From an uncultured Chloroflexia bacterium (lineage in GTDB: Bacteria; Chloroflexota; Limnocylindria; Limnocylindrales; CSP1-4): a DNA stretch of 64,000 bases. Location of the stretch: NCBI GenBank assembly GCA_963828165.1, contig CAWHDR010000001.1:1696001-1760000 (forward strand). Direction: 5' to 3'. The notes under the pieces are model-generated. The model was not told where the DNA came from. It saw only the letters and a program-made list of their open reading frames with translations, and did not search any database. Of the stretch, positions 11,530 to 58,642 are shown piece after piece. Both the position numbers and the translations under genes were made by a program. How positions within the stretch are numbered: the stretch's first letter is position 1; every line of letters begins with the position of its first letter.

Positions 11530-11580
11530 CGGCGCCTCCAATGATGCGCCACCGACCGCGCCCGGTCCTACACTCCGAGC

Positions 11581-12447: not shown

Positions 12448-12468
12448 GGCGGGCCCGACCCGCCGCGA

Positions 12469-15416: not shown

Positions 15417-15482
15417 CGCGGTCGAGTGTAGCCACGTCAAGCCCCGATGGCTGCGTGGGTTGCCGCCATCCGAGGACCTGCC

Positions 15483-16349: not shown

Positions 16350-16418
16350 CTCACTCCCGGCGGCCTCCGCGATCGAAACCGTCCGCGGAGGTCGACCCTG
16401 AATCTACGCCCGCGCTCC

Positions 16419-18332
16419 TCAGGCCGGGACGGCTGCCTCGAGCTTCTCGATGCGGATGGCGGTGGCCTTGAACTCGGCGGTGCCGGACTTCGGGTCCGTG
16501 GCGTCGATGGTCAGGAGGTTCGTGGCCACGTCGTCCTGGAAGTGCAGGGTCATGAACGTGAGTCCGGGCCGGAGCGATTCGTCGACGCGGACCGGCACCT
16601 CCACCTGGCCGCGGCGGGACACGACGCGCACCCGTTCGCCGTCGGCCAGGCCGTGCGCGGCGAGGTCCTCCGGCGAGATATCGAGCGACTCGCCGCGCCG
16701 AAGGGGCGATGTGTAGCCCCCGCTCTGGACCCCGGTGTTGTAGGAGTCCAGCCGACGCCCCGTCGTGAGCCGGATCGGGTACTCCGTCGTGAGCTTGTCG
16801 ACGGGCGGGTCGTGGTCCACCGGCACGAACGGCACGCGGTTGCCGGGGACGGGGTCCTCCCATAGCCGCGAGTGCAGGAACAGCTCGCCCGGGTGGTCCT
16901 CGTCGTAGCACGGCCACTGGAGCCCGCCGAGCTCCTCGAGCCGGCGGTAGCTCATGCCGGCGTGGACCGGCGACAGCCGCCGGACCTCCTCCCAGACGTC
17001 CTCGGCCCTGGGCTCGCCCCACGCGCCGCCCATGCGGTTGGCGAGCTCGAAGATGATGTCCAGGTCGTCGCGCGCACCTGGAGGTGGCGCCACGGCGGCA
17101 CGTACCCGCTGGACGCGCCGCTCGGAATTGGTGACGGTGCCCTCACTCTCGGCCCAGGCCGCGGTGGCGGGGAGAACGACGTCGGCCAACGCGGCCGTCT
17201 TCGTGAGAAACAGATCCTGGACCACGAGCGTGTCCAGGCCCTCGAGCAGGCCGATCGCCCGCTTCTGATCCGCCTCCGACTGGACGGGGTTCTCGCCGAT
17301 GCAGTAGACCGCCGTGAGATCGCCCCGTTCCATCGCATCGAACATCCCGGACAGGTGCCAGCCGCGCTGCGGCGGCACCGTGACGCCCCAGGCTTGATCG
17401 AACTTCGCCCGGAGTTCGTCGTTCTCGACGTGCTGGAACCCCGGCAACCGGTCGGGCAGGGCACCCATGTCACCGCCGCCCTGGACGTTGTTCTGGCCAC
17501 GGAGCGGGTTCACGCCGCTGCCATAGCGCCCGACGTGCCCGGTCAGCAGGACGAGTGAGATGAGCGCGAGCACGTTGTCGACCGCGTTGTGGTGCTCGGT
17601 GATGCCGAGGGTCCAGCAGATCATCGCCCTGGGCGCCTGCGCGAAGGCGTGGGCCAGCTCCCGGATGGCCTCGGCCGGGACACCCGTCTCCTCCTCGGCG
17701 TATTCGAGCGTGTAGCTCTCGACCTTGGCCTTGTACGCCTCGAAATCGACCGTGGCGCGCTCGATGAACTTGCGGTCCTCGAGGCCGGCGGCGATGATCT
17801 CGCGCGCCATCGCGTTGGCAAGCGCGATGTCCGATCCGACGTCGAGCCCGAGCCAGCCGTCGGCCCATTCCGCCGACGAGGTCCGGCGCGGATCGATGGC
17901 GTACAGACGGGCGCCCTTGTGGACCGCCTTGAGGACGTGATGGAAGAAGATCGGATGTGTCTCGCGGGCGTTACTGCCCCAGAGGACGATCAGATCGGCG
18001 TCCTCGGCCTCACGATATGAATTTGTGCCGCCACCGGCACCGAACACGGTCGCCAGACCGGCGACGCTCGGAGCGTGTCAGGTCCGGTTGCAGCTGTCGA
18101 TGTTGTTGCTGCCCAGGACCGCCCGGCTGAACTTCTGGGCTGCGAAGTTGACCTCATTGGTCGCCTTGCTGCAGCTGAAGGTGCCGAAGGTCGTCGAGCC
18201 GTGAGCCGCCTTCGCGGCCGCGAACCCTTGGACCACGCGATCGAGCGCTTCGTCCCAGGTCGCGGGACGGAGCTCGCCCCCCTTCGTGTCGCGCACGAGG
18301 GGCTGGGTCAGTCGCACGTAGGGCTTCGCCAC
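16419..18332 (-). CDS. selenocysteine-containing formate dehydrogenase catalytic (Mo/W-bis-PGD) subunit
   Basis: ORFs 18078-18332 and 16419-18047 share a frame and join across one TGA: NNIDSCNRT-U-HAPSVAGL; PLRGQNNVQG; SECIS follows; GGAGG RBS. Confidence 0.95.
18049..18080 (-). promoter_or_regulatory. bacterial SECIS element
   Basis: UGA CACGCUCCGAGC GUCGCC-GGUCU-GGCGAC; 6-bp stem with G-containing loop starting 12 nt after UGA, resembling the fdhF SECIS. Confidence 0.88.
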
Positions 18333-18397
18333 GGGCGATGGCCTCCTGCGGGGGTTGACCTCCGGAGTGTACCGCGGGGTGGCCTGCGGGCGATCCG

Positions 18398-18583
18398 TCA
18401 GGGAGCCGAAGGCTGGGCGGTGATCCCCGGCACGGGGTCCACCGGGTCAAGGCCTCGCCCGAAGTCGGTCTTCAAGGCGGCGCTGTAGGCCAGCCAGACG
18501 AAGATGACGCCGGCGACGCTCAACACGAGCATCAGGATGGCGCCACGGTACGAGGACGGGGTGTAGGGATCGGGGGAGCTCAT
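18398..18583 (-). CDS. small single-TM hypothetical protein
   Basis: 61 aa with hydrophobic AILMLVLSVAGVIFVWLAY; same strand as selD and FDH. Confidence 0.6.
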   Translation of the reverse strand: MSSPDPYTPSSYRGAILMLVLSVAGVIFVWLAYSAALKTDFGRGLDPVDPVPGITAQPSAP

Positions 18584-18647
18584 CGGCGAGGTATGCGCCG
18601 ACAGGGTGGCAGTGTCAAGGCGGACGGCGATCGATCGGACGGGAGCA

Positions 18648-19707
18648 CTAGCGAAGTCGAAGCCCGGTGCCCTCGGTGACGTTGCCCACGATCCACGCCT
18701 GGACCCCGGCGTCCCGGAGGGCGTCCACGATGGACCCCACCTGGTCCGGGGATACAGCGGCCAGCAACCCTCCGCTGGTCTGGGGGTCGTGGGCGAGCGT
18801 GACGAGAGCGGGGTCGACGCCGTCGGCGACCTCGAGCGCGTCCGCCACGAAGCGTCGGTTGTGGGCAGCGCCGCCGGTCTCCACGCCGGCCGCGGCCAGT
18901 CCCACCGCCCCCGGCAGGGCAGGCAGGGCCGACGCCTCGAAGACGAAGCGCGTGCCGGACGCCCGAGCCATCTCGAGGCCGTGGCCCAGCAGCCCGAAGC
19001 CGGTCACGTCCGTGGCGGCGACGATGCCGTGGTCGACAAGGGCTACGGACGCCGCCCGGTTGAGGGTCCGCATCTGCTCGATGGCCGTCGCCAGGTCCAC
19101 CTCGCTCGTCCGGCCGCCCCGCGCTCCCGAAACCAGGACGCCGGTCCCCAGGCGCTTGGTCAGGATCAGGATGTCGCCTGGCTTCGCTCCACCCTTGCGC
19201 AGCAGCTTGTCGGGGTGGGCCGCCCCGATCACCGCGAGCCCGTACTTGGGCTCCGGATCCCGGATCGTGTGGCCGCCGGCGAGCGTGCCGCCGGCTTCAC
19301 GCACCTTCGATGACGCGCCCTCGAAGATGGCGGCCAGCACATCCCGTTGGCAGCTCCTCGGGAAACGCGGCGATCGACAGCGCGAACAGCACGCGCCCGC
19401 CCATCGCGAACACGTCGCTCAGCGCGTTGGCCGCCGCGATCTCGCCGAACGTCCGCGGGTCGTCCACGAGCGGCGGGAAGAAGTCCAGCGTGCCGATGAT
19501 CGCGAGGTCGTCGCTGACGCGATACGCGGCAGCGTCATCGGGGGGGTCCAGGCCCGCGATGAGGTTCCCCGGCGCATCGAGCGCCGCCTCGGCACCGAGG
19601 CCGCTGAGCGCATCCGCCAGCAGGTCCGCCCCGAGCTTGGCGGCGCAGCCACCGCAATCGGTCAACGTGGTGAGGCGCAGCGGCGGCGGGGCGTCGAGCG
19701 TGGTCAC
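18648..19707 (-). CDS. selD: selenide, water dikinase (Cys-type) with a +1 frameshift near 19341-19350
   Basis: LRLT..CGGCAAKLG, DDAA, DFFPP, ANALSDVFAMGG, GGHT, TDVTGFGLLGH, DPQTSGGLL; span 1060 nt = 3n+1. Confidence 0.9.
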
Positions 19708-19772
19708 TCGCCGATGATAGGTCCGAACCCGCAGGGAGGGCCGATCCTCCCCCGCGCGCTACCATCGAGCGT

Positions 19773-19869
19773 GGGAGCGGAGGGGTCCCGGTGGGTCCCC
19801 CGGTCTTCAAAACCGGTGGCGCCGCGCTCGGCGTGGCGCGGTGGGTTCGACTCCCACGCGCTCCCGCCA
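19773..19869 (+). tRNA. selC: tRNA-Sec (anticodon UCA)
   Basis: GGGAGCG/CGCTCCC acceptor stem, 6-bp D stem, CCGGT-CTTCAAA-ACCGG anticodon arm, 9-bp variable arm, GTGGG-TTCGACT-CCCAC, G discriminator + CCA; TACCAT -10 upstream. Confidence 0.96.
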
Positions 19870-19889
19870 CGCGCCGCCATGGAGACCGG

Positions 19890-21275
19890 ATGTCAACGAA
19901 ACAGGCCGCCCGGCCGCGTCCCCCCAGCGTCGAGCGCGTTCTGGCGCGCGTCCGTGACCGCCTGGGCGGTCCGCGCGAGGCCGCGCCGGTGCTGGCGGCG
20001 ACACGGGGGGTCATCGATGACGAGCGCGAGCGTCTCGGGGCCGATGGCTCGGCGCCACGCGACGTCGACGAACTGGCGGCGATGGTCGTGGACCGCCTGG
20101 ACGCCTTTGCGGGGCGGGTCGTCACCGCCCCGACGGCCGTCATCAATGCCACCGGCGTCATCGTCCACACCAATCTCGGACGGGCACCCTGGCCGGCGGT
20201 CGTGGTCGAGGCGGCCGCCGAGCTCGCGACGGGCTACCTGCTCCTCGAGCTGGACCGTGAGACTGGACGTCGCGGCGCACGCGCGCGCATCGCGGAGGAG
20301 CACCTCGTCGCCTTGACCGGAGCGGAGGACGCACTCGTCACGAACAACAATGCCGCGGCGCTGGCGCTCGCCGTCGGACTCGCCGGCAGGAACGGCGTGG
20401 TCGTGTCGCGTGGGGAGCTCGTCGAGATCGGTGGCGGCGTGCGGATCCCGGACATCGTTCGGCGGGCCGGCGCCAAGCTCATCGAGGTCGGGACCACGAA
20501 CCGGACGCGGGCCGACGACTTCGAAGCGCCGCTGACGGAAGGTCGGGCACGCGCCGTCCTGCGCGTCCATCCATCGAACTTCACGATGTCCGGGTTCATC
20601 GAAACGCCAGACCCGGCGGCCGTCGCCGAGCTCGCCCATCGCCACGGCGCGATCGTCATCGACGACCTCGGGTCGGGCGCGCTCATCGACACGGCCCCCT
20701 ACGGGCTGACCCATGAACCCCTGCCGTCCGAGCGCCTGGCGGCCGGCGCCGACATCGTGACGTTCAGCGGCGACAAGCTCGTCGGCGGGCCGCAGGCCGG
20801 CCTGGTGATCGGACGCGCGGACCTCATCGCGAAGATGCGACGCGATCCACTGGCCCGCGCGATGCGCCCCGACAAGCTCACGATGGCAGGCGTGGCGTTG
20901 ACGCTGGGCCTCTACCGCGCTGGACGGGCCACGAGCGACATCCCGGTCTGGCGGATGATCTCGACGCCGCTTCCGACGCTCCGTGGGCGGGCGGAGGCGC
21001 TGCGGTCGCGTCTCGGGGACGGCGTCGACGTCGTCGACCTGCGCTCCACGGTCGGCGGCGGCTCGTTGCCCGGCGAGACCCTCCCGTCCGTCGGCCTGGC
21101 GGTCCGCGCCCGGCCGGCGACGCGGGCGCTCACGGCGCTGCGACGGAGCGATCCACCGGTCATCGGCCGCATCGAGGACGATCGGGTCGTGCTGGACCTG
21201 CGCACCGTGGAGCCCGATCGGGACGAGGACCTGGCCGCCGCCATCGAGCACGCGCTCGCTGCCGTCGGACGATGA
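19890..21275 (+). CDS. selA: L-seryl-tRNA(Sec) selenium transferase
   Basis: VINATGVIVHTNLGRAP, NNNAAA, SRGELVEIGG, EVGTTNRT, FSGDKLVGGPQAG. Confidence 0.96.
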   Translation: MSTKQAARPRPPSVERVLARVRDRLGGPREAAPVLAATRGVIDDERERLGADGSAPRDVDELAAMVVDRLDAFAGRVVTAPTAVINATGVIVHTNLGRAPWPAVVVEAAAELATGYLLLELDRETGRRGARARIAEEHLVALTGAEDALVTNNNAAALALAVGLAGRNGVVVSRGELVEIGGGVRIPDIVRRAGAKLIEVGTTNRTRADDFEAPLTEGRARAVLRVHPSNFTMSGFIETPDPAAVAELAHRHGAIVIDDLGSGALIDTAPYGLTHEPLPSERLAAGADIVTFSGDKLVGGPQAGLVIGRADLIAKMRRDPLARAMRPDKLTMAGVALTLGLYRAGRATSDIPVWRMISTPLPTLRGRAEALRSRLGDGVDVVDLRSTVGGGSLPGETLPSVGLAVRARPATRALTALRRSDPPVIGRIEDDRVVLDLRTVEPDRDEDLAAAIEHALAAVGR

Positions 21276-37502: not shown

Positions 37503-38375
37503 CTACGCGACCGCGCTCCGGCGCACCTCGTAGCCCCCGCCTTCGGCGGAGCGGATCTCGTAGCTCGGCTGGTCGTAGACGCTCGGCCCCTGCCGGACGA
37601 GGCCGTCACGCAACCGGAAGCGCGAAGCATGCCAGGGGCACTGGACGCAACCGTCGACGATCGTGCCCTCGTTGAGCGGGCCGCCGGCGTGGGCACAGAC
37701 GGCGTGCAGCGCGTGGACGGTCTCGCCGAAGCGGACGACGACCAGGTCGTTGATGCCGGCCCGCATCTTCGTCGGCGTCGCCTCCGGCAGCGCGGCGAGG
37801 TCCGTCACGTCGCCCGTGTCCAGCTTGATCCATTTCGTGCCGGCGCCACGGAACGCGTGGCGGTTGACCATGTTGCCCAGGACGTACGCGACATCGCCCC
37901 CGACGAACGCTCCGGCGCTGACGATCAGGAACCCGACGATCGACAGCGCGATGGGCACGGTGCGATCAACGGGGGCGCCCGCGCGCAGGATCGCCGAGAT
38001 GACGAGCAACACCAGGGCGACGACCATGAGGGTCGAATGGGTCGTTGCCCGAGTGAGGGCCGTGCCCTCGGTGTCGGCGTAGTCGGCCAGTCCTGCGAGG
38101 GCGGCGAGGAGCATCGTGATGATCGTCGCGAGCAGGACGATGTCGGCTGCCGCGGGCTGACCGATCAGGTCGAGGACCACGGCACCTAGAAGCAGCCCGA
38201 TCGGGAGGTCCGTCGCTGCGGCATGGAGCGGATGGCCGAGCCAGCGACCGTTGAGCAGATCCTTGATGGGTCTGATCGGTCGGAAGATCGCGGAGACCCA
38301 GCGACGGTTGAATTCGCCGAACGGTCGCGCCCAGCCGTCGTTGATCGCCACGAGTCGAGCCAGCAATCGAGCCAC
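37503..38375 (-). CDS. DUF2231 membrane domain + Rieske 2Fe-2S protein
   Basis: WLGHPLH..TDLPIG; CAHAGGPL, CPWHASRF; GGGAGG RBS. Confidence 0.9.
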   Translation of the reverse strand: MARLLARLVAINDGWARPFGEFNRRWVSAIFRPIRPIKDLLNGRWLGHPLHAAATDLPIGLLLGAVVLDLIGQPAAADIVLLATIITMLLAALAGLADYADTEGTALTRATTHSTLMVVALVLLVISAILRAGAPVDRTVPIALSIVGFLIVSAGAFVGGDVAYVLGNMVNRHAFRGAGTKWIKLDTGDVTDLAALPEATPTKMRAGINDLVVVRFGETVHALHAVCAHAGGPLNEGTIVDGCVQCPWHASRFRLRDGLVRQGPSVYDQPSYEIRSAEGGGYEVRRSAVA

Positions 38376-38438
38376 GAGAGCACCTCCCTACTGGAGACTG
38401 TACGCCGTGCGCGAGGGCGTGGATGCTGCGGAGGCCGC

Positions 38439-38547
38439 TTCTCCACAGGCCGTCCACACTGGTGGGAAACTCGGGGATAAGCACGAGGCGGTTTCGCGTG
38501 CTTTCGTGGATAAGGCCGTTGTGGCCCCAAACCATTACATCTACATT
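38439..38547 (+). promoter_or_regulatory. DnaA-box-like cluster plus sigma70-type promoter
   Basis: TTCTCCACA 38439, CCGTCCACA 38450, CGGGGATAA 38472, CGTGGATAA 38505; TTGTGG(38519)-17 nt-TACATT(38542). Confidence 0.5.
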
Positions 38548-38553
38548 TCGTCT

Positions 38554-38740
38554 TGCCCGAAGGGGCAGGTGCGAACCGCCAGAACCGCACCGGGGAGTGA
38601 TCCTCGGAGCGGGATCGGGAGCCAGGTTCACTGGTCGCAAGGCCAGCGGGCGAGGCTCACGGGCGGCACCCGGAGACTCCGGACTTGTTCGGAGCCGAAG
38701 GGAGGCCGATTGGCCGGTTTCCTACCAGTTCCTTCGGGCA
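38554..38740 (+). ncRNA. candidate ~187-nt structured non-coding RNA
   Basis: Terminal pairing TGCCCGAAGG/CCTTCGGGCA, multiple internal helices with G-U pairs, GCAA tetraloop; 5' end at the predicted TSS. Confidence 0.6.
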
Positions 38741-38818
38741 TTTGCACGTCCGCGGCCCGGGCGCCGGCGACCCGCGGCTGGGCAGCACGCCTGATCCTGG
38801 TCGGGGTAGGCTCGCGCG

Positions 38819-40075
38819 GTGATCCCTGATCCGGCACCCATCCCCGCCCGACCACGCCCGACGCAGGACTGGCGGGTCCTCGTCGCCGTCTTCTGGGTCA
38901 CCTCGATGGTCGAGGGTGCCGGCGTCAGCCAGATCTTCGCCCTCGTTCCGTCCTACCTGCGCGAGATGGGCGTCCCGGAAGCCGACCGCCTCACCTTCGT
39001 CGGGCTCTTCAGCTCGCTGATCTTCGTGGTCGGGATGCCGCTCGTGCCGCTGTGGGGTGTGTGGGCCGACAAGTACAGCCGCAAGGCCGTCATCGTGCGG
39101 AGCGCGCTCGTCGAGGCGGTGGTGTTCGCCGGCGTGGCGCTGTCCAGGGAGCCGTGGCAGCTGGCCCTGAGCATGCTCCTCATCGGGTTCCAGCTCGGGA
39201 ACACCGGGGTCATGCTCGCCGGCATCCGCGACGTGACGCCGATCCGCCGGCTTGGCACGACGATCGCGATCTTCGGCGCGTCGGGCCCGATCGGGTTCGC
39301 GGTCGGCCCGGCCCTGGCCGGCGTCCTGATCGACGGCCTCGGATGGTCGTTGCCGGCCGTGTTCTGGTTGTCGGCCGCCATGTCCGTCGGGACGGCGCTC
39401 CTCGTCACGTTCGGCTCCCGTGAGGTCCGGCCGGACGTCATCCCGACCGGTCGCGTCCTGGACCTGGCCTTCGGCGCCGTCCGCGGCGTGCTCGCCGATC
39501 CGATCGTCGTGCGCATCTTCGTGATCTTCGGGGTGTCGTTCCTGGCCACCCAGATGACGAGGCCCTACATCCCGGTCCTCGTCGAGGGCCTCGCCGGCAC
39601 CGGTCCGGGCCTGGCCTCGGCGATCGCGCTGGTCATGGGTACCGCCGCGCTCGTCGGCGGGGTCATCTCGCCCCTCGGTGGGGTGCTTGGCGACCGTGTC
39701 GGGTTCCGTGCGGTGCTCGTCGGCGCCCTCGCGGCCGGCGGTACCGTGCTGATCGCGATGCCCTTCGTCTCGAGCGTCCCGGCCCTGGCCGGGCTGGCGG
39801 TCGTGTCCGGGGCGGCGACCGCCACGGTGAGCGCGATGGTCTTCGGCCTTCTCGCCATCGACGTTCCGCCGGAGCGACGGTCGGCGACCCTCAACCTCGT
39901 CTACCTGCCGCTGTACGCGGCGGGCATCGTGGGTCCGGCCGTGGGCGCGGGCGTCGTCATGGTGACCGGCCTGACCGGGCCGTTCCTCGTCGCCGCAGCG
40001 ATCTTCATCGCGGGCGCCGTCGTCATCGCGGTACGACCATCACGGGACCGCGTGCCGGTGGCCGATCAGGGCTGA
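38819..40075 (+). CDS. MFS transporter (DHA1-like)
   Basis: WGVWADKYSRK, GVLGDRVG, 12 TM; TAGGCT 6 nt before GTG. Confidence 0.9.
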   Translation: MIPDPAPIPARPRPTQDWRVLVAVFWVTSMVEGAGVSQIFALVPSYLREMGVPEADRLTFVGLFSSLIFVVGMPLVPLWGVWADKYSRKAVIVRSALVEAVVFAGVALSREPWQLALSMLLIGFQLGNTGVMLAGIRDVTPIRRLGTTIAIFGASGPIGFAVGPALAGVLIDGLGWSLPAVFWLSAAMSVGTALLVTFGSREVRPDVIPTGRVLDLAFGAVRGVLADPIVVRIFVIFGVSFLATQMTRPYIPVLVEGLAGTGPGLASAIALVMGTAALVGGVISPLGGVLGDRVGFRAVLVGALAAGGTVLIAMPFVSSVPALAGLAVVSGAATATVSAMVFGLLAIDVPPERRSATLNLVYLPLYAAGIVGPAVGAGVVMVTGLTGPFLVAAAIFIAGAVVIAVRPSRDRVPVADQG

Positions 40076-48953: not shown

Positions 48954-49762
48954 CAGCGCGCTGGCAGGCTGGCCGCTGCCGCCTGGTCCAGGATCCACGT
49001 CGCCCCATCGCGGCGCGTGAGCTGCGCCGGCCAGCGGGTCGGGTCGAGCTCCGGGCCGAAGATGTCGGCGAGGATCGCCGCCTTGCCGGCCCCGTGCATC
49101 ACGACGAGGATCTGCCGCGCGACCGCGAGGATGGCGGGGTTGAGCGTCACCCGCTCGACGTGTGGCTCGATGTGGGTGGGGGCCGGGATCGCCAGCGCCC
49201 AGTCCGTCGATTCGAACGCGGCGGAGCCCGGGAACACGGACAGCACGTGCCCGTCGCCGCCCACGCCGAGCAGCACGAGATCGAGCACGGGCCAGCCGTC
49301 GACGACCTCGAGATCGGCGGCACGGAGCTCTCGCTCGAGTTCTGCCGCACAGCCGGCGGCACCCCAGCCCTCCCCGATCGCTTCGCCCGTCCGGAATGGA
49401 TGGATGTTCGCGAGAGGGAGGGGAACACCCGTCGCGTTGCTCCCGATAGTGCTGCCCGCCTGACGGCCGGGCAGGTCGAGCAGGACGTCGTCGAACGGCT
49501 TGACGTTGGACAAGGCGTGGTCGCGCGGCACGAAGCGATCGTCGCCCCACCACACGTGGACGCTCGGCCACGGGATGTCGTGTGCGTGCTCGGGCGCGGC
49601 GAGGTGCCGGTAGATCCCGACCGGGGTTGAGCCGCCGGTCGTGGCCCAGTCGGCCCGGCCGCGTGCCTCGATGGCGCCCCGCAACGACGCTCCGATCCGG
49701 TCCCCGGCCAGCGCGGATGCGGCCGCCGCATCGGCGACGACGACGATCTCCGGATCGGTCAT
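48953..49762 (-). CDS. pgl: 6-phosphogluconolactonase
   Basis: GGSTP, WGDDRFVP, LGVGGDGH, RVTL, GKA. Confidence 0.92.
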   Translation of the reverse strand: MTDPEIVVVADAAAASALAGDRIGASLRGAIEARGRADWATTGGSTPVGIYRHLAAPEHAHDIPWPSVHVWWGDDRFVPRDHALSNVKPFDDVLLDLPGRQAGSTIGSNATGVPLPLANIHPFRTGEAIGEGWGAAGCAAELERELRAADLEVVDGWPVLDLVLLGVGGDGHVLSVFPGSAAFESTDWALAIPAPTHIEPHVERVTLNPAILAVARQILVVMHGAGKAAILADIFGPELDPTRWPAQLTRRDGATWILDQAAAASLPAR

Positions 49763-51042
49763 GACGCCGGCCGTGCGCCCGCTGGGGGGATGGCTCCGCC
49801 GGCGAGCTGAGCCGCGGCGCGCAGGCTGACGGTCGCGATGTCCTCGCGGCGGCCGGTCTCGATCGCCTCGGCCAGCAGGTCGACCTCCCCGCGACGCGCG
49901 GCGAGGAACCGCCGTTCGAGTGCCTCCACCCCGTCCTGCCAGACGCGCACGTGGACCGCCTCGGCCTCTGCGGTCACGTCGGCGCGCAACTCGGAGCCGC
50001 GTCGCTCGGCCAGGAGCTCGACGCGGAGGGTCGTGCCGGCGGGCATCGTCGAGACGACCGGCCGCAGGACGACCGCGACCTCACCGCGCCCCTGGCTCAG
50101 CGTGGCCGCCATCCCGCGGCTGACCACCGGCCGCCCTCCGGGTGCGGGTTTCGAGCGGGAGGCCGCGGGCCGCTCGGCCACGGCTGCCAACGGTTTCACG
50201 ACCGACATCCCGAGCCGCGAGGCCAGCCACGCGACGTGGTAGATCGGCTTGACGATGTTCGTCGAGCCCGGCGCGCCAGTCTCGTCATGGGTGGCGTAGG
50301 TCACGGCGATGCGCCGTAGCGAGCCGAGGTACGGCAGGAAATCCGGATCGTCGAAGATGGAGGCGATGGCCTCCCGCCAGCGCGACTGGCGGACCAGGGC
50401 GAAGTCGCTGATCGCCAGCCGGGTCACGTCGAGCAGGCCCGCCATCTCGCGCATCCGTTCGAGTCCGTCGCCGTTCCATGTCGAGCCGTCCACCACGAGT
50501 CGGTCCGCGCCGCTGAGCAGATCGAACGCGGCCCGCGAGGTGAACGGCGGCTCGCCCGGCCACCAGACGGTCACCGGCAGGTCGTGGACGATCAGCGGCG
50601 TCACGATCGCCGACAGATGCCGGCCGGCCTCACCGCCGGCCGTCAGGTGGATCGTCTCGGCGCAGGTCTCGGGCGCGTCCTCGCGCGGCAGCACGCAGTG
50701 CGCCTCCACCCGCGCATCCAGCCACGACGGCCCGTCTGGATCCGCGGACTGGACGACGATGGTCCGCGACGGGTGCCGCCCCGTGAGTGCCTGGATCGTG
50801 GCCGCGCCACGCTCCGCGATCTCCGGCCGGCGCGCGATGACCACGAGGTTCATCACGCTCGTCCGGGCGGCGATGTGGCGGGCGGGTTCGCCGTTCACCT
50901 CGGTGGTCAGGTCCTGCTTGGCCCAGATCCGGGCGAGCTCCGTTTCGATCTCGGCGATGCTGTGGGCGCGTGCCGACCAGCGCAGGACCGGCTCGTTGAG
51001 TGCCACGGCCGGTGCGACGGAGGTCGGCAAGGCGGGGCTCAG
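49759..51042 (-). CDS. opcA: glucose-6-phosphate dehydrogenase assembly protein
   Basis: RTSVMNLV, HPSR, DLPVTVWWPG, DRLVVD; lies between zwf and pgl; start uncertain. Confidence 0.85.
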   Translation of the reverse strand: MSPALPTSVAPAVALNEPVLRWSARAHSIAEIETELARIWAKQDLTTEVNGEPARHIAARTSVMNLVVIARRPEIAERGAATIQALTGRHPSRTIVVQSADPDGPSWLDARVEAHCVLPREDAPETCAETIHLTAGGEAGRHLSAIVTPLIVHDLPVTVWWPGEPPFTSRAAFDLLSGADRLVVDGSTWNGDGLERMREMAGLLDVTRLAISDFALVRQSRWREAIASIFDDPDFLPYLGSLRRIAVTYATHDETGAPGSTNIVKPIYHVAWLASRLGMSVVKPLAAVAERPAASRSKPAPGGRPVVSRGMAATLSQGRGEVAVVLRPVVSTMPAGTTLRVELLAERRGSELRADVTAEAEAVHVRVWQDGVEALERRFLAARRGEVDLLAEAIETGRREDIATVSLRAAAQLAGGAIPPAGARPAS

Positions 51043-52736
51043 ATCCGTCGCCAGCGCTTGCCGTCGCGGGCGATCATCTCGTCGGCCTCGGTCGGGCCCC
51101 ACGTCCCGGCATCGTAGTTGGCGAAGTCGGGCGCCGGGCTCGATGCCCACAGGTCGATGATCGGGTCGACGATGCTCCACGCTTCCTCGACCTCGTCCGC
51201 GCGCGTGAACAGCGAGGCGTCCCCCTGGAGGGCGTCGAGGATCAGCGTCTCATAGGCGTCGGGCGAGTCGATGTTGAAGGCGGACCCATAGGTGAAGTCC
51301 ATCGTGACCGGGCGGATCGCCATGCCCAGGCCCGGCACCTTGGCACCGAACCGCAGCATGATCCCCTCGTCCGGCTGGATGCGGATGGCGAGCAGGTTCG
51401 GGTCCGGTTCCGTGGCGGCGTCGCGGAACAGGCGATGCGGCACCTCGCGGAACTGGATGGCGATCTCCGTGGAGCGCTTGGGCAGGCGCTTGCCGGTCCG
51501 CACGTAGAACGGCACGCCCGACCAGCGCCAGTCGTCGATCGTCAGGCGCGCGGCGATGTAGGTCTCGGTCTCGGAGGACGGGTCGACGTCCTGCTCCTCC
51601 CGGTAGCCCGGCACCTGCGTCGCGGCGACCCAGCCCGGGCCGTATTGTCCGCGGACGACGTTGCCGGGCGAGTCCGCGGGACTGGCGATCGCACGGAGCA
51701 CCTTGACCTTCTCGTCGCGCAGCGGGTCCGCCTCGAACGTCGCCGGCGGCTCCATCGCGACGAGGCTGACGAGCTGGAGCAGGTGGTTCTGGAGGACATC
51801 GCGTGACGCGCCGGTCTCTTCGTAGAAGGCGCCACGGTTTTCGATGCCGATCGACTCGGCCACGGTGATCTGCACGTGATCGACATAGCGCCGGTTCCAG
51901 AGTGGCTCGAAGATGCCGTTCCCGAACCGGAAGACCAGCAGGTTGCGGACGGTCTCCTTGCCCAAATAGTGGTCGATGCGGTAGACCTGCGACTCGCGGA
52001 AGACCTTGCCGACCTCGCGGTTCAGCTTCTTGGCGGAGTCGAGGTCGTGGCCGAACGGCTTCTCGATGACGATGCGTCGCCAACCGCCGTCATGGCGCTC
52101 GTGATCGAGGCCCACGCGGCCCAGCTGGGCGACGAGGTCCGCGAACTGCGACGGCTGCGTGGCGAGGTAGAACAGCCGATTGCCGCGCGTGGCGTGCTCG
52201 GTATCGATCTCGTCGAGGCGGCTGGCCAGGCGATCGAAGCCGGCAGGATCGGTGAAATCGCAGCGGTCGTACACGATCCGCTCGCTGAACGACGCCCAGG
52301 CCGCTTCGTCGAGCGGCAGCACGCGGCTGAACTCATCAAGGCCCTTGCGAACTTCGGCCCGATAGTCGTCGTCGTCGTACGGACGGCGGCCGACGGCGAT
52401 CAGGAGGAATTCGTGTGGCAGGAGGTTGGTCCGCCACAGGTGGTACATCGCCGGGATGACCTTGCGGTAGGCGAGGTCGCCGGTCGCCCCGAACAGCACC
52501 AGGACCGATGGATCGGGCACCCGTTCCAGGTGGAGCCCCTGGCGAAGGACGTTCTCGGCAGGCTTGGCGCGCGACGCCCGCTTGCCTTCGCGGACCTCGC
52601 GCAGCTGGCGCATGGTCTTGGGCGCGTCCTTGGGACGGGGCGCCGGTTGGGCGGGGATCGGCTGGTCCGGCGGCGCGTCGACAGGCGCGGGGTCCTTGAC
52701 CGGCACCTCGACCTTGCCCTTCACCCGCGTCGCCAT
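51039..52736 (-). CDS. zwf: glucose-6-phosphate 1-dehydrogenase
   Basis: FGATGDLA, EKPFG, RIDHYLGKE, QNHLLQ, RWSGVPFYVRTGK. Confidence 0.97.
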   Translation of the reverse strand: MATRVKGKVEVPVKDPAPVDAPPDQPIPAQPAPRPKDAPKTMRQLREVREGKRASRAKPAENVLRQGLHLERVPDPSVLVLFGATGDLAYRKVIPAMYHLWRTNLLPHEFLLIAVGRRPYDDDDYRAEVRKGLDEFSRVLPLDEAAWASFSERIVYDRCDFTDPAGFDRLASRLDEIDTEHATRGNRLFYLATQPSQFADLVAQLGRVGLDHERHDGGWRRIVIEKPFGHDLDSAKKLNREVGKVFRESQVYRIDHYLGKETVRNLLVFRFGNGIFEPLWNRRYVDHVQITVAESIGIENRGAFYEETGASRDVLQNHLLQLVSLVAMEPPATFEADPLRDEKVKVLRAIASPADSPGNVVRGQYGPGWVAATQVPGYREEQDVDPSSETETYIAARLTIDDWRWSGVPFYVRTGKRLPKRSTEIAIQFREVPHRLFRDAATEPDPNLLAIRIQPDEGIMLRFGAKVPGLGMAIRPVTMDFTYGSAFNIDSPDAYETLILDALQGDASLFTRADEVEEAWSIVDPIIDLWASSPAPDFANYDAGTWGPTEADEMIARDGKRWRRI

Positions 52737-52740
52737 CGCG

Positions 52741-53649
52741 CTATTCGGTCTTCACGGCATGACCGCCGAACTCGTTGCGCAGGGCGGCCAGCACCTTGCC
52801 CGTGTACGAATCGTCCTGGCGGGACCGGAAGCGGGTCAGCAGCGACAGCGTGATCACGGGCGCCGGCACGTCCTTGTCGATCGCCTCCTGGACCGTCCAG
52901 CGGCCCTCGCCGGAGTCCGCCACCCAGCCCTTGAGATGTTCCAGGTCGCGGCCGTTGGCCTCGAACGCCCGGCCCAGCAGCTCGAGCAACCACGACCGCA
53001 CGACCGAGCCCTGCATCCACAGCGCCGAGATGCCCGCGAGATCGAGGTCGTAGTCGCTCGCGTGCATGATCTCGAAACCCTCGGCATAGGCCTGCATGAG
53101 GCCGTATTCGATGCCGTTGTGGACCATCTTCACGTAGTGGCCGGCGCCCGGACCGCCGACGTGCAGGTAGCCGCCCTTCGGAGCGAGGGTCGTGAAGATG
53201 GGCTCGAGCGCCGTGACCGGCTCCTTGTCTCCCCCGACCATCAGACAGTAGCCGAGCTCCAGCCCCCAGATGCCACCCGACGTCCCCGCGTCGACATAGG
53301 CGATGCCCTTGGCCTTGAGCGCCTCGTGCCGGCGGACGTCGTCATGGAAGTTGGTGTTGCCGCCGTCGATGATCGTGTCACCCGGCTCGAGGTGCTCGAG
53401 CAGCTCCTCGATCTGCGCCTCGGTCGCATCGCCGGCCGGGACCATCACCCAGACCGCGCGCGGCTTCTCGAGCTTGGAGACCAGCTCTTCGATCGAGTAG
53501 GACGGGATGGCGCCCTCGCCGGCGATCTCGGTGGTCTTCTCCGGCGTGCGGTTGTAGACGACGACCTCCTGGCCGTCGCGGATGAGCCGGCGGACCATGT
53601 TGGCCCCCATCCGGCCCAGACCGATGAACCCGATGCGCATGGGGATCAA
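52741..53649 (-). CDS. gnd: 6-phosphogluconate dehydrogenase, decarboxylating (short form)
   Basis: GLGRMG, DGGN, KMVHNGIEYG, DSGEGRW, RNEFGGH. Confidence 0.95.
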   Translation of the reverse strand: MIPMRIGFIGLGRMGANMVRRLIRDGQEVVVYNRTPEKTTEIAGEGAIPSYSIEELVSKLEKPRAVWVMVPAGDATEAQIEELLEHLEPGDTIIDGGNTNFHDDVRRHEALKAKGIAYVDAGTSGGIWGLELGYCLMVGGDKEPVTALEPIFTTLAPKGGYLHVGGPGAGHYVKMVHNGIEYGLMQAYAEGFEIMHASDYDLDLAGISALWMQGSVVRSWLLELLGRAFEANGRDLEHLKGWVADSGEGRWTVQEAIDKDVPAPVITLSLLTRFRSRQDDSYTGKVLAALRNEFGGHAVKTE

Positions 53650-55370
53650 CCCTCCGAGGTCGTGCGAAGCGCGGCTTCGAGCGCGCGCTCCAGGGCGGCG
53701 AGGCCGGCGTCGGGATCGGCGCCGAGGTGGACCCGCAGGATGGACAGCTCGTGGCTCTCGAGTGCCGCGAAGTCGCCGTCGGCCTGGGCGTCGATGAGCT
53801 GGCCGAAGGTGTACGGCCAGCCGGGAATCTCACGGTCGTCGGGGTGATCGGCCGTCAGCTGGAGGAACTTGCCGATCGGGGGGCCGCCCTTATGCAGCTG
53901 GCCGGTCGAGTGGAGGAAGCGGGGGCCATAGCCGGCGGTCGTGGCGACCTGCGTCGCGTCACGCAGCATGGCGCGGATCCGGGTGAACGCCTCGTCGCGC
54001 GGGGGGGTCGGCGCGATGAACGCTTGCAGGGCGATGTAGGCCCTGGTCGGTCGGCCGATGTGCGAGGCGAGCATCGACGTCAGCGTCGGGTCCGTGACCG
54101 CGAGGCCCTTCGCCGCTGGATCCGCGGCACGGCCGCGACCCGCCTTCGCGAGCACGCTCCGCGTGAGCTCCTTGGCTTCCTCCACGTTGGGCTGGTCGAA
54201 CGGGTCGATGCCCAGGACCACACCGGCGATCGCCGTCGCGACCTCCCAGCGGACGAACTCCCCGCCAAGATCGATCGGGTCGGCCAGCTCGATGCGGATG
54301 ACCGGATGGCCCGCGGCCTCAAGCTGTCCGGCCAGGACGTCCCGGCCACCGTCCGTGCCATCCGTGACTGAAAGCCGGACGAACACGCGGTCCGGGCCGT
54401 AGGCGTCCGCGGCCCCGAGCGGCTCCAGGTCGATCGGGACGATCCCGACCCCATGCTTCCCGGTGCTCTCCGCGATCAACTGCTCGGCCCACGCCCCGAA
54501 GGACGAGATCTCGTCGTCGGCGAGGAAGGTGAGCTTGTCGCGGCCGGCCTTCGCCAGAGTGCCCATCGCGATGCCCAGCGACACGCCGGGATTGCGGCCC
54601 GGATCGGGCTCACGGCAGGCGCCCAGCATGGCCAACGCAGACGCCAGCAGGGCGTCGAGGTCGAGGCCGATGAGCGATGCCGGCACCAGCCCGACATACG
54701 TCAGCGCGCTGTAGCGGCCGCCGATGTCCGGTGGATTGAGGAACACCTCCCGGAAGTCGTCGTGGTGGGGGATCGCCTCGAGGCTCTTGCCGGGATCGGT
54801 GATCACGGCCATCAGGCCACCGGGCTTCTCATAGACGTGGTGCTTGACCTTGTCGAGCTCCTTGTCGGCGAGGTCCCAGAAGTACTCGAGGAACGCGTTG
54901 GGCTCGGTCGTGGTGCCGGACTTGCTGGCGATGATGACCAGCGTCTTGAGCGGGTCCAGGTCGTCGAAGACGGCCGCCACTGCCGCGGGGTCCGTTGAAT
55001 CGAGGATGCGCAGGTCCAGGTATCCCTCCTGGGACCCGAACGTCCGGTGCAGCACGTCCGGCGCGAGGCTGCTGCCGCCCATCCCGGCCACGACAGCCGT
55101 CGTGAATCCGGCCTGCACGATGCCGTCGCCGAACCCTTCGAGCCCCGCGACGTTGTCGGCGAAGTCCACCGGTGCCTCCAGCCAGCCGAGCCGCTCCGCG
55201 ATCGACTTCTGGACTGCCGGATCGTCCGACCACAGCGTCACGTCGCGATCGAACAGCCGAGTCGCCCATTCGTCGGCCCGTGCCCCCTCCACGGCCGCGT
55301 CGTAGGCGGCGGTCGCATCACCGAGCGCGAAGCCCGGGGCACGGACGGAGGTCGACGTGGGATCGGTCAT
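53646..55370 (-). CDS. pgi: glucose-6-phosphate isomerase (Tal-Pgi C-terminal type, standalone)
   Basis: RLGWL, GMGGSSL, ASKSGTT, IGGRYS, QLIAESTGK, PFDQPNV, HSTGQLHKGG; GGAGG RBS. Confidence 0.9.
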   Translation of the reverse strand: MTDPTSTSVRAPGFALGDATAAYDAAVEGARADEWATRLFDRDVTLWSDDPAVQKSIAERLGWLEAPVDFADNVAGLEGFGDGIVQAGFTTAVVAGMGGSSLAPDVLHRTFGSQEGYLDLRILDSTDPAAVAAVFDDLDPLKTLVIIASKSGTTTEPNAFLEYFWDLADKELDKVKHHVYEKPGGLMAVITDPGKSLEAIPHHDDFREVFLNPPDIGGRYSALTYVGLVPASLIGLDLDALLASALAMLGACREPDPGRNPGVSLGIAMGTLAKAGRDKLTFLADDEISSFGAWAEQLIAESTGKHGVGIVPIDLEPLGAADAYGPDRVFVRLSVTDGTDGGRDVLAGQLEAAGHPVIRIELADPIDLGGEFVRWEVATAIAGVVLGIDPFDQPNVEEAKELTRSVLAKAGRGRAADPAAKGLAVTDPTLTSMLASHIGRPTRAYIALQAFIAPTPPRDEAFTRIRAMLRDATQVATTAGYGPRFLHSTGQLHKGGPPIGKFLQLTADHPDDREIPGWPYTFGQLIDAQADGDFAALESHELSILRVHLGADPDAGLAALERALEAALRTTSEG

Positions 55371-55483
55371 CGTGGCCTCCGAGCGAGGATGGTCAGCTGG
55401 GGTCGTCCATGGTACGACGGCCCGCGGGTCGCGAGTCACCCGACGTCGGCGCCCCGTCCCTCCCGCCACCGACCTTGGCGCCA

Positions 55484-55597
55484 GCAGCGTTCCAACCGGC
55501 CACCGAACCGCCCAAATCTGGAGATCAGCGGTCAATCTGGAACGCTGCATGCCCCCATTCGGCGCCGAAAGGGCCTTCGGCGGTCCGCTGGAACGCT
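55484..55597. repeat. AGCGTTCCA/TGGAACGCT inverted-repeat cluster
   Basis: GCAGCGTTCCA 55484, TGGAACGCTGC 55538, TGGAACGCT 55589. Confidence 0.5.
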
Positions 55598-55638
55598 CGT
55601 GGTTCCAAGCTGGGACACGGGCGCGAGTGCGAGCCCGC

Positions 55639-56097
55639 CTACTCCCCAGCCGCCTCGATCGCGAAGACCTTGGCGAGCCGCCGCTGGTGGCGCGGCTCAC
55701 CGCTGAAACCGGCGCCGAGGAACGCGATCGCGCACTCGTACGCGGGTTCGGGGCCGATGACGCGGGCGCCCAGCGTCAGCACATTCATGTCGTCGTGCTC
55801 CACGCCCTGGTGCGCGGAATACGTGTCATGGCAGACCGCCGAGCGGATGCCGCGCATCTTGTTCGCGGCCACGCTGGCACCGACGCCCGAGCCACAGATC
55901 AGGATCCCGCGGTCCGCCTCGCCGCGCTGGATCGCCTCACCCAGGCGCTGCGCGAAGTCCGGGTAGTCGTCGTTCGGGTCGGAACCGTCGCCACCCAGAT
56001 CGATGAGGTCGTGACCGAGGCCGGCGTCGCCGAGCCGGCGCAGCAGCGCGTCCTTGAGCTCGGCCCCGGCATGGTCGGCGGAGAGAGCGATGCGCAT
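55639..56097 (-). CDS. rpiB: ribose-5-phosphate isomerase B
   Basis: [30 protein letters not shown]. Confidence 0.96.
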
Positions 56098-56111
56098 GAG
56101 GCAAGGATAGC

Positions 56112-56340
56112 GGCCCGCGGTATCGGAACCTGCGAGACGCCGCGGAAACCGCTTCCGACAGGTGCCGACGTGCACCCCACGACGCTAACGTCGATCGGAG
56201 TCGATTTGGACGACCCAATCGACCTCGGTGATCGCTCGGCCGTGCATCAGGTGCACAAACGCGGAACGAACGGGTGGCGTCGGCCGTTTGTTCGCGGATA
56301 GGGTCACCACGTGCACGTCGGGTCAGTTTCCCGATGGGCC
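56112..56340 (+). ncRNA. candidate ~230-nt multibranched structured RNA/element
   Basis: CCGACGTGCAC/GTGCACGTCGG, GGTGATC/GGTCACC and four internal hairpins; G-U pairs favour the + strand. Confidence 0.5.
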
Positions 56341-56404
56341 CGATCGCGGCCCCCGCTGGCGCCCGCGCGGGCCGGCGCCAGACCGGAGACCGGCCCAAAA
56401 GCGA

Positions 56405-58540
56405 TCAGCTGTGCCCGGGATCCGAGCTTGCGGTGCGGCCGACGCCGGCCTCACCGGCGTCCAGCGTCGGGTGCCCGCCCATGTGCCCGAAGTGACCGCC
56501 CTCGACCGTCGGGATGCGGCCGCGCAGGCCGTCGCGCACGACGCGCCGGCCGATGTCCGTGACACGCTCCGCGGTGAAGCCCAACTTCTCGAAGATCGTA
56601 CCGGCCGGTGCGGAGGCGCCGAAGTGATCGAGGCCGACGATCGCACCCTCGTCACCGACCCAGCGCTCCCAGCCGAGCGACACGCCGACCTCGACGCTGA
56701 CGCGCTTGCGGACGGCCGGCGGCAGGACCAAATCGCGGTACGCCTGGTCCTGGAGGTCGAACGTCTCCCAGCAGGGCATCGACACGACTCGCGCCCGGAT
56801 GCCGTCCGCCTCGAGCGCCTCGGCGGCCGCGAACGCGAGCTGCAGCTCAGAGCCCGTGGCGATGAAGATCAGCTCCGGGTCCCCGTCACCCTTTGCCTCG
56901 CGCAGGACATAGGCGCCGCGTTGCAGGCCCTCGCGAGCGTTCTTGGCCGTGCCCGCGAGTACCGGGAGCTTCTGCCGGGTGAGGGCCAGCGCCACCGGGC
57001 CGTCGCGCCGCTCGACGGCGAGTGCCCAGGCCGCCGCCGTCTCGTTGGCGTCGCCGGGTCGCACGAACCAGAGATTGGGGATCGCCCGCAGGGCGGCGTA
57101 GTGCTCGACCGGCTCGTGGGTCGGCCCGTCCTCACCCAGGCCCACCGAGTCGTGCGTCCAGACGTGGATGACGTGGAGTCCGGCCAGCGCGCCCAGCCGG
57201 ACCGCCCCGCGCATGTAATCGCTGAACGTCAGGAAGGTCGCGTCGTACGGGATGAACCCGCCGTGATAGGCGATGCCGTTGGCGATGCCACCCATGCCGT
57301 GCTCGCGAACGCCGAAGCGCAGGTTCCGACCGGGCTCGTCGGCGCTGAAGTTGGGCTCGCCCTTCACATCCGTAAGGTTGGATTCCGAGAGGTCGGCGGC
57401 GCCGCCGAACAGCTCGGGGACGGAGCCCGCGAGGGCCTGGATCGCCTCCTGTGACGCGTTCCTGGTCGCGACTTCGGTGCCGGTGTCGTACGTCTTGAGG
57501 TCAGTGTCCCAGCCGTCCGAGAGCTCCCCGGCGAGGCGCCGCCGGAAGGTCGCGGCGAGTCGCGGATGGGCCGCCTCGTACGCATCCAGCCGACCCTCCC
57601 ATTCCTTGACCAGGTCCTTGCCCGCGCCCACGGACTTGCGGAATACGCGGAGCGCGTCCTCAGGGATGTAGAAGCTCTTGTCCGGGTCCCAGCCGTAGGC
57701 CTCCTTGGTGAGGCGAACCTCGTCCGGACCGAGCGGCGCGCCATGCGCCTTCTGCGAATCCTGCTTGTTCGGGCTGCCGAAGCCGATATGCGTCCGGACC
57801 GCGATCAGGCTCGGCCGGTCGTCATGACGCGCCACCTCGATGGCGGCTTCGATCGCCCCGAGGTCGTTTCCGTCCGCGATGGCTTGCGTGTGCCAGCCGT
57901 AGGCGTCGAAGCGCTCGGGCACGTCTTCCGACCAGGCCATCGACGTCGGCCCGTCGAGCTGGATGTGGTTGTCGTCGTACAGGACGATGAGCTTGCCCAG
58001 GTGGAGGTGGCCGGCGAGGCTCGAGGCCTCCGATGCGATGCCCTCCTGGAGGTCGCCGTCCGACGCGATGACGTAGGTCCAGTGGTCGACGATCACGTGC
58101 TCGTCGCGGTTGAACTCGGCCGCCAGCCGGCGCTCGGCGATGGCCATGCCGACGGCATTCGAAAGGCCTTGCCCGAGCGGCCCGGTCGTCGCCTCTACCC
58201 CGGGGGTCAGGCCGTGCTCCGGGTGTCCCGGCGTGCGCGATCCCCACTGGCGGAACAGCTTCAGGTCATCGAGCGACAGGTCGTAGCCGGTCAGGTGAAG
58301 CAGGGAATAGAGCAGCATGCTGGCGTGGCCGGCGGAGAGCACGAAGCGGTCGCGGTCCGGCCACTCTGGGTTCGTCGGGGCGTGTCGCAGGAACCGGGTC
58401 CATAGCGCGTAGGCCATCGGCGCCGCACCCATCGGGGCCCCGGGGTGCCCGGAATTCGCCTGCTGGACAGCGTCCATCGAGAGGGTCCGGATCGTGTCGA
58501 TCGCGAGGCGGTCGAGGTCGGGCGTCACGGCAGCGGTCAT
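56405..58540 (-). CDS. tkt: transketolase
   Basis: [43 protein letters not shown]. Confidence 0.97.
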
Positions 58541-58642
58541 CGGGCGGGACTCCGGCTCGGGCGGGCAGGTGGAGCGCCATTGTAGGTCGGCCGGCGACAG
58601 GGGCTGAGCGGACCGACGCGTGCGCGCCTATCCTCGGAACCG

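Follow-up and report, generated by a model that had tools for sequence, protein, structure and literature searches.

The 443-base-pair (bp) intergenic region at 38376-38818 of a 64,000-nucleotide (nt) stretch of contig CAWHDR010000001.1 (assembly GCA_963828165.1, an uncultured Chloroflexia bacterium of the order Limnocylindrales; this whole stretch is called the window below) contains a segment of about 187 nt that can form an extensive RNA fold and lies upstream of a gene for a transporter of the major facilitator superfamily (MFS). This locus raises the question of whether the segment is a gene in its own right, a regulatory part of the transporter gene, or the incidental product of elements that act as DNA. 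A first-pass annotation, made from the letters alone, had proposed that an unannotated structured RNA stands alone here, under its own promoter and next to DnaA-like boxes, and this proposal is supported as far as sequence analysis goes. On balance, we consider it probable that the segment is a stand-alone gene for a highly structured noncoding RNA (ncRNA) of about 187 to 197 nt, which would belong to an undescribed family, be transcribed from its own promoter, and act in trans as a folded, protein-binding RNA. The RNA family and its unusual promoter architecture would be new; its kind, the orphan structured bacterial RNA, is known.

Fold and covariation of the RNA element

The + strand of 38554-38740 folded at −110.4 kcal/mol (z −6.73), a value matched by none of 200 dinucleotide shuffles, and the − strand folded at −94.6 kcal/mol (z −4.57). 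The fold was retained after 90 nt of downstream flank were added, and a search for tandem repeats found nothing. The element is bounded by a perfect 10-bp terminal inverted repeat (38554-63/38731-40), which the minimum-free-energy fold lengthens to 13 bp and then continues irregularly to about 38581/38712; the closing stem and irregular extension described in the first-pass annotation were thus borne out by both the inverted-repeat check and the fold.

Relatives of the locus were collected by a profile search of genome contigs with an alignment of 15 MFS homologues, which yielded 80 Limnocylindrales loci. With the 187 nt of the window as the query, nhmmer returned one match per locus in 57 of the 80, each spanning query positions 1-2 to 185-187 (E values from 6.8e-49 to 2.3e-11) and each lying on the MFS strand, upstream of the MFS gene. 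These nhmmer-found sequences were used to build a covariance model, which recovered the same 58 places, window included, at 152 to 183 bits on the + strand, compared to 28 to 52 bits for the reverse strands of the same places. This difference, together with two G-U pairs among the invariant pairs of the closing helix P1, favors the + strand over the − strand, as had been proposed. The copies are 182 to 188 nt long and differ by 1- and 2-nt insertions or deletions, which argues that the stretch is not coding.

The consensus structure was obtained from per-sequence minimum-free-energy folds and RNAalifold. In a structure-blind MAFFT alignment of the 58 sequences, 92.5% of 3975 cells were paired, and 25 of 72 pairs changed on both sides, compared to 13.7 ± 1.9 in shuffles (0 of 500 reached 25) and 2 to 10 in slid controls, in which the partners were moved by 1 to 3 columns. 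The covariation score was 0.146 versus 0.021 to 0.055 in the controls. An alignment fitted to the model gave similar values, with 92.9% of the cells paired and two-sided changes in 25 of 70 pairs. Covariation resides mostly in P3, P4, P5, and P1a: four pairs of helix 1 changed on both sides, as did 10 of the 13 pairs in the upper helix of P5 (89% paired); the lower helix of P5 has five pairs and is 79% paired. Thus, the fold is not due to chance and is supported by covariation.

In this fold, a closing helix of about 24 bp (P1-P1a-P2) would lead into a four-way junction with arms P3, P4, and P5, each capped by a stable tetraloop, and with only about 3 + 3 unpaired bases at the center (Table 1). 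The long GCAA-capped arm (P4, about 38615-38663) and the hairpin at 38677-94 with its CUUG-type loop, both recognized at first pass, are present and covary. The inner pairing suggested there, CCGGG/CCCGG (38590-94/38669-73) closing a junction with a hairpin at 38599-616, did not survive: only 50.7% of its cells are paired in 57 distinct homologues, and 490 of 500 shuffles did as well. The conserved alternative is P3 (38582-38614), and the center is therefore a closed four-way junction, almost without unpaired bases, instead of the asymmetric bubble that had been drawn. Hence the original observation stood in its outer stem, GCAA arm, hairpin, strand, and promoters and fell in its inner junction pairing. 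Among the helical parts, sequence invariance extends to P1, the P2 5′ strand, and the P4 internal loops, which are two conserved, purine-rich 2x2 loops; the 5′ strand of P1a and P2, GAACCGCCAG, is nearly invariant, and the length of its partner strand varies. A scan of all column pairs for pseudoknots gave nothing usable, as its filter was over-permissive and admitted G-U noise.

The likeness of P4 to helix 8 prompted a comparison with the signal recognition particle (SRP) RNA. No SRP model matched. In SRP RNA, the internal loops of helix 8 next to a GNAR tetraloop are invariant; here, the columns adjacent to the GCAA stem (78-79/92-93) show free variation and are often paired, and this candidate was rejected.

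Known RNA families and phylogenetic distribution

Searches for a known family were negative. At the gathering score, Rfam 15 returned only tRNA-Sec for the whole window. Within 38350-38900 at E ≤ 10, the only match was raiA-hairpin, which scored 14.4 bits where the gathering score is 43.7 and had an E value of 6.3, as expected by chance, and seven divergent homologous loci gave no match at E ≤ 1. The first-pass statement that no family could be assigned therefore holds. ARAGORN found 0 tRNA or transfer-messenger RNA (tmRNA) genes in 38300-38900, and these identities were dismissed. A literature search retrieved no description of the RNA. The raiA, ROOL, GOLLD, and OLE motifs are orphan structured bacterial RNAs with no assigned function, and the RNA resembles them in being multi-helix, tetraloop-rich, strongly covarying, lineage-restricted, and devoid of an obvious expression platform; it differs in matching none of them in Rfam 15 and in being smaller than ROOL, GOLLD, and OLE.

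The covariance model detected no RNA in the 23 loci without an nhmmer match, the best score being 19 bits (E 0.34, locus L074). One of these loci, L009, lacks upstream sequence and cannot be scored; among the 79 assessable related genomes, the RNA is absent from the MFS site in 22. Twelve of the 23 RNA-less loci keep the Rieske gene, the divergent left neighbor of the RNA, beside the MFS gene, with an intergenic region of only about 70 to 270 nt that contains neither the RNA nor the DnaA-box-like sites described below. In a tree of the MFS proteins (78 rows; L062, L070, and L072 were omitted because of short matches), 51 RNA rows and L009 form one well-supported clade of 52 rows, four RNA rows fall in a second clade, and at least three state changes are required. 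This distribution and the absence of both boxes and RNA from the RNA-less loci indicate that the boxes, promoter, and RNA were gained or lost as one unit. As far as sampled, only part of the order Limnocylindrales (Chloroflexota) appears to have the RNA, which is kept in many uncultured soil Chloroflexota. Loci L001, L026, L029, L058, L060, and L063 are labeled Anaerolineaceae, Thermomicrobiales, or Patescibacteria; they nest in Limnocylindrales clades with the same synteny, and imprecise labeling or mis-binning of the contigs is the probable explanation.

The patchy presence and the inverted termini together bring to mind a miniature inverted-repeat mobile element that has become a relic or been domesticated, in which case the fold would be a by-product of terminal inverted repeats. 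The perfect 10-bp repeat, a TTTCGT hexamer near both ends, folding of both strands beyond shuffles, and absence from otherwise syntenic loci would all suit such an origin, yet the element occurs once per locus at a fixed syntenic position and nowhere else in about 720 kb of loci, nor did the covariance model or a separate check reveal a second copy in the 64-kb window. Moreover, the internal helices covary, the G-U pairs and model scores are strand specific, the conserved module reaches 115 nt past the left repeat to include the promoter and boxes, and plasmid and phage collections searched with blastn in distant mode gave no match. We regard a mobile-element origin as extremely unlikely.

Similarly, we give little credence to a functional analogue of 6S RNA or Ms1, i.e., an abundant RNA polymerase-binding RNA. 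The RNA shares with 6S RNA (RF00013) a size of about 185 nt, paired ends in a long closing helix, a strongly conserved promoter of its own, and a single copy per locus. However, 6S RNA, which binds the sigma-70-type RNA polymerase holoenzyme and templates pRNA, has a large open central bubble that mimics an open promoter, and here the center is a closed four-way junction with two side arms, P3 and P5, that are supported by covariation and would need to open. The resemblance to 6S noted at first pass is further contradicted by the lack of a 6S match at E ≤ 10 in 38350-38900 or at E ≤ 1 in seven homologues, and the RNA, missing as it is from this site in 22 of the 79 assessable genomes, is not universal even within the order. 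Ms1, which is about 300 nt long, is likewise a structured stand-alone small RNA (sRNA) of high-G+C bacteria that escapes Rfam-type searches and is traced by gene neighborhood. Ms1 is defined in Actinobacteria by a conserved neighborhood that holds genes for a HAD-IB hydrolase and an oxidoreductase (PMC9130861). The RNA studied here is flanked instead by Rieske/DUF2231 and MFS genes in a different phylum, Chloroflexota, so that the Ms1 synteny is absent, and Ms1 itself was rejected.

Limnocylindria are abundant uncultured Chloroflexota of soil and freshwater with essentially no described RNA biology. The conservation of 70 base pairs, the invariance of the closing helix, and base-level promoter conservation across dozens of species point to strong selection, which, given that no Rfam family matches, makes the element a concrete candidate for an undescribed class of functional RNA. 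The covariance model constructed in this work offers a means of charting the family.

Promoter, transcript ends, and the transporter gene

The 70 nt upstream of the RNA are strongly conserved, and sequence farther out is unalignable. The −35 and −10 hexamers (Table 1) are separated by 17 nt in 16 of the 56 genomes and by 18 nt in 39, and the RNA 5′ end lies 7 to 8 nt past the −10 hexamer. This position agrees with the start site predicted in the first-pass annotation, with the −10 variants found in 51 of 56 genomes and TTGTNN located 17 to 18 nt upstream in 55 of 56. We accepted this promoter on the basis of its conservation, not its consensus strength. Rightward transcription would thus begin at about 38554/38555 from a housekeeping-type promoter (TTGTGG, 17-18 nt, TACATT).

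At the other end, about 10 nt past P1 are conserved in the 57 loci, after which the sequence becomes unalignable. These nucleotides form a short U-containing tail, in which the RNA would end just past the 3′ strand of P1. The window and L002 share one version of the tail, UUUGCACGUC, compared to the consensus CUUUCGUGUG in the other 56 copies; in the same two, the last base of P1 is A, not G, and the terminal U-G becomes U-A. The 55 nt beyond the tail contain no conserved hairpin (mean z −0.22, with 1 of 58 below −2). A consensus scanner called no canonical terminator after the RNA, but it is uninformative for this genome, having found 2 terminators over 20 kb versus 3.1 expected.

The MFS gene has a leaderless-type promoter of its own, as had been claimed: TANNNT occurs 6 to 8 nt before an in-frame ATG or GTG in 55 of the 57 RNA-bearing loci and in 15 of the 23 RNA-less loci, and no Shine-Dalgarno sequence precedes the MFS start in those loci. 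The same arrangement suggests that leaderless mRNAs occur in the Limnocylindrales lineage; in contrast to the MFS gene, the divergent Rieske gene has a GGAGG-type ribosome-binding site. The RNA and the MFS start codon are 31 to 670 nt apart, with a median of 78. Taken together, the separate MFS promoter, the variable spacing, and the existence of RNA-less relatives with the same Rieske-MFS order argue against the RNA being the leader of the MFS mRNA. Spacers of 250 to 670 nt are found in L003, L010, L013, L015, L022, L024, L026, L036, L037, L050, L070, and L076. The long spacers are mostly free of a plausible open reading frame (ORF), only L011 having a 91-codon candidate, and they may hold further noncoding elements.

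These data bear directly on the main alternative, namely, that the RNA is a cis element for the MFS transporter, either a riboswitch with P1 as its terminator stem or a strongly transcribed unit upstream that affects the MFS promoter through read-through or by occluding it. MFS exporters are commonly regulated by riboswitches, and a multi-helix junction with tetraloops resembles large aptamers; here, such a junction is followed by a U-containing tail and stands on the same strand upstream of the MFS gene in all 57 RNA-bearing loci, at a median distance of 78 nt. Nonetheless, all loci were recovered through MFS homology, and the 57/57 linkage is in part a consequence of that design. On an mRNA produced by read-through, the leaderless-type MFS start, now internal, would be poorly used, and with no terminator-like site, no conserved downstream hairpin, and no Shine-Dalgarno sequence to sequester, a recognizable conserved expression platform is missing. 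Furthermore, P1 is invariant, unlike the covarying P1 of typical aptamers, no aptamer in Rfam matched, and the RNA-less relatives retain the same MFS gene and promoter in spite of lacking the RNA. A cis-acting role is therefore unlikely, albeit less so than the 6S-like and mobile-element alternatives, and a stand-alone RNA gene remains our preferred interpretation.

DnaA-box-like sites and proposed mode of action

The DnaA box consensus is TTATCCACA, or TTGTCCACA in high-G+C bacteria (TT[A/G]TCCACA). Upstream of the RNA promoter, four sites resemble it (Table 1). In the space that separates the divergent Rieske and RNA promoters, they are laid out as forward, forward, inverted, and inverted, and site 2 starts 11 nt after site 1, site 3 starts 22 nt after site 2, and site 4 starts 33 nt after site 3, which places all four on one face of the helix. 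Along with the promoter hexamers, the boxes have been preserved in 56 genomes, while the surrounding sequence cannot be aligned. Site 4 shows just one common variation, T or C (CGTGGATAA in 39 genomes and CGTGGACAA in 16), and the two forms match the two known box flavors. In L031, L044, and L063, the three RNA-bearing loci without the Rieske gene, the boxes persist, indicating that they belong with the RNA.

The phased sites upstream of the −35 hexamer suggest that RNA synthesis is tied to DnaA occupancy, i.e., to replication status; occupancy of the boxes by DnaA would then control synthesis of the RNA. The Escherichia coli dnaA and mioC promoters are regulated by DnaA through boxes immediately upstream or overlapping; at the present locus, two divergent promoters flank four phased sites, and the gene product would be a structured RNA. 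We know of no structured sRNA controlled by DnaA boxes, and a literature search found no structured RNA wired to the replication initiator DnaA. If the upstream sites do bind DnaA, this locus would provide one. A more ambitious version, in which the RNA represents a new ribonucleoprotein or regulatory RNA class gated by DnaA, with the boxes switching a strong promoter, the RNA level reporting or feeding back on initiation status, and P1 docking a partner, is in our estimation a speculative and rather improbable extension.

The boxes might also be primary, with the locus acting as a DnaA-binding chromosomal site of the origin, datA, or DARS type and the transcript serving an accessory role, for example, in transcriptional activation or R-loop formation. 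By the general consensus given above, four conserved, phased box-like sites in 56 genomes do form a box cluster, the boxes and RNA share their gains and losses, and the cumulative GC skew drifts weakly from negative to positive across the window, which leaves a small doubt. A precedent for an ncRNA located at an origin is CcnA of Caulobacter, described as a base-pairing regulator of ctrA and gcrA mRNAs (PMC8959179). Like CcnA, the RNA gene sits beside DNA sites for replication control; CcnA, however, is encoded at a true origin and acts by base pairing, and the RNA described here has almost no single-stranded sequence and occupies a locus without origin hallmarks. Origins usually lie near dnaA or dnaN, and neither gene was found within the 64 kb; nor do the genes change orientation at this locus. 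The basal unwinding system comprises DnaA-trio repeats (3′-GAT-5′) and an unwinding region adjoining the boxes (PMC8287927), yet inspection of the alignments by eye revealed no conserved trinucleotide repeat and no conserved AT-rich stretch other than the −10 region. In addition, an origin relocated in only part of an order is unlikely, and such a role gives no reason why 70 base pairs of the RNA fold are under selection. We thus consider a primarily DNA-level role quite improbable.

Returning to a stand-alone, trans-acting RNA, we propose that it would be bound by a protein partner, a ligand being less likely. The near absence of single-stranded sequence, the tetraloop-capped arms, and the sequence-invariant helical parts argue for a fold recognized by protein rather than for a base-pairing regulator.

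Several points weigh against this interpretation. Transcription, the start site, and the 3′ end are deduced from sequence, and a consensus promoter scanner made no call at the RNA promoter, where the hexamers match at 7 of 12 positions. Because the tail lacks the form of a canonical terminator, transcription could still continue toward the MFS gene, which lies 78 nt downstream, and the constant linkage of the RNA to the MFS gene could be functional as well as a result of sampling. The pairing of P1 is deduced from complementarity, since P1 never varies and shows no covariation. Protein binding is the most likely mode of action by an argument of exclusion. As for the boxes, their assignment to DnaA reflects likeness to the general consensus, from which site 3 departs by two mismatches in every genome, and the motif is not enriched in the window by itself (6 matches versus 5.1 expected).

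Gene neighborhood and other features of the window

In the window, the RNA is flanked by genes for a Rieske/DUF2231 protein, an AAA_33 kinase, and the MFS transporter, in keeping with a conserved gene order of EamA, AAA_33 kinase, Rieske, (RNA), and MFS. The Rieske gene is upstream of the RNA in 52 of the 57 RNA-bearing loci. Coordinates of the features are listed in Table 1.

Table 1. Coordinates of the RNA element, its upstream sites, and the neighboring genes in the window
Feature	Position	Strand	Remarks
Structured RNA, conserved unit of ~187 nt	38554..38740	+	nhmmer, covariance model, fold z −6.73
P1, 5′ strand	38554..38566	+	Pairs with 38728-38740; 12 pairs invariant in 57 distinct sequences
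P1a and P2, 5′ strands	38568..38580	+	Pair with 38712-38726
P3 hairpin	38582..38614	+	GUGA (GYGA) tetraloop 38597-38600; 12 pairs, 95% of cells paired, 3 changes on both sides
P4, long arm	38615..38663	+	GCAA tetraloop 38637-38640; 18 pairs, 93% paired, 5 changes on both sides
P5 arm	38664..38708	+	CUUG-type loop 38684-38687; includes hairpin 38677-94
P2, P1a, and P1, 3′ strands	38712..38740	+	Fold and alignments
Short U-containing tail after P1	38741..38750	+	Window UUUGCACGUC, consensus CUUUCGUGUG; presumed 3′ end region
−35 hexamer TTGTGG	38519..38524	+	TTGTGG in 46/56 genomes, TTGTNN in 56/56
−10 hexamer TACATT	38542..38547	+	TACATT in 42/56, TAGATT in 5, TACTGT in 4, at the same offset
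DnaA-box-like site 1, TTCTCCACA	38439..38447	+	1 mismatch in 42/56 genomes, 2 in 14/56; fixed offset
DnaA-box-like site 2, CCGTCCACA	38450..38458	+	NN[A/G]TCCACA in 56/56; 1 mismatch in 15, 2 in 41
DnaA-box-like site 3, inverted, CGGGGATAA on +	38472..38480	−	CGGGGATAA in 55/56; 2 mismatches in all 56
DnaA-box-like site 4, inverted, CGTGGATAA on +	38505..38513	−	1 mismatch in 55/56; ends 5 nt before −35
Leaderless-type promoter of the MFS gene	38807..38821	+	TAGGCT, 6 nt, GTG start
MFS_1 (DHA1-like) transporter gene	38819..40075	+	Pfam PF07690, E 3.6e-33; neighbor, outside the RNA unit
DUF2231 + Rieske [2Fe-2S] gene	37503..38375	−	Pfam PF00355 and PF09990; divergent left neighbor

Among the best 120 hits, MFS homologues are 76 to 95% identical. 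The conservation of this DHA1-like protein, with about 170 invariant columns among 15 diverse homologues, is unusual for an efflux-type permease.

Elsewhere in the window, 11545-21275 is a selenocysteine and formate dehydrogenase cluster that includes tRNA-Sec (19773-19865, 71.6 bits) and SelA (ORF 19674-21275). The listed start of the SelA ORF overlaps tRNA-Sec, and the true start is therefore probably later. The cluster also contains an AIR-synthase-related (SelD-like) gene and genes for a molybdopterin oxidoreductase, a NuoF-like subunit, and FdhD. On the − strand, 49759-58627 carries pentose-phosphate genes encoding OpcA, glucose-6-phosphate dehydrogenase, 6-phosphogluconate dehydrogenase, a PGI-domain protein, RpiB, and transketolase.

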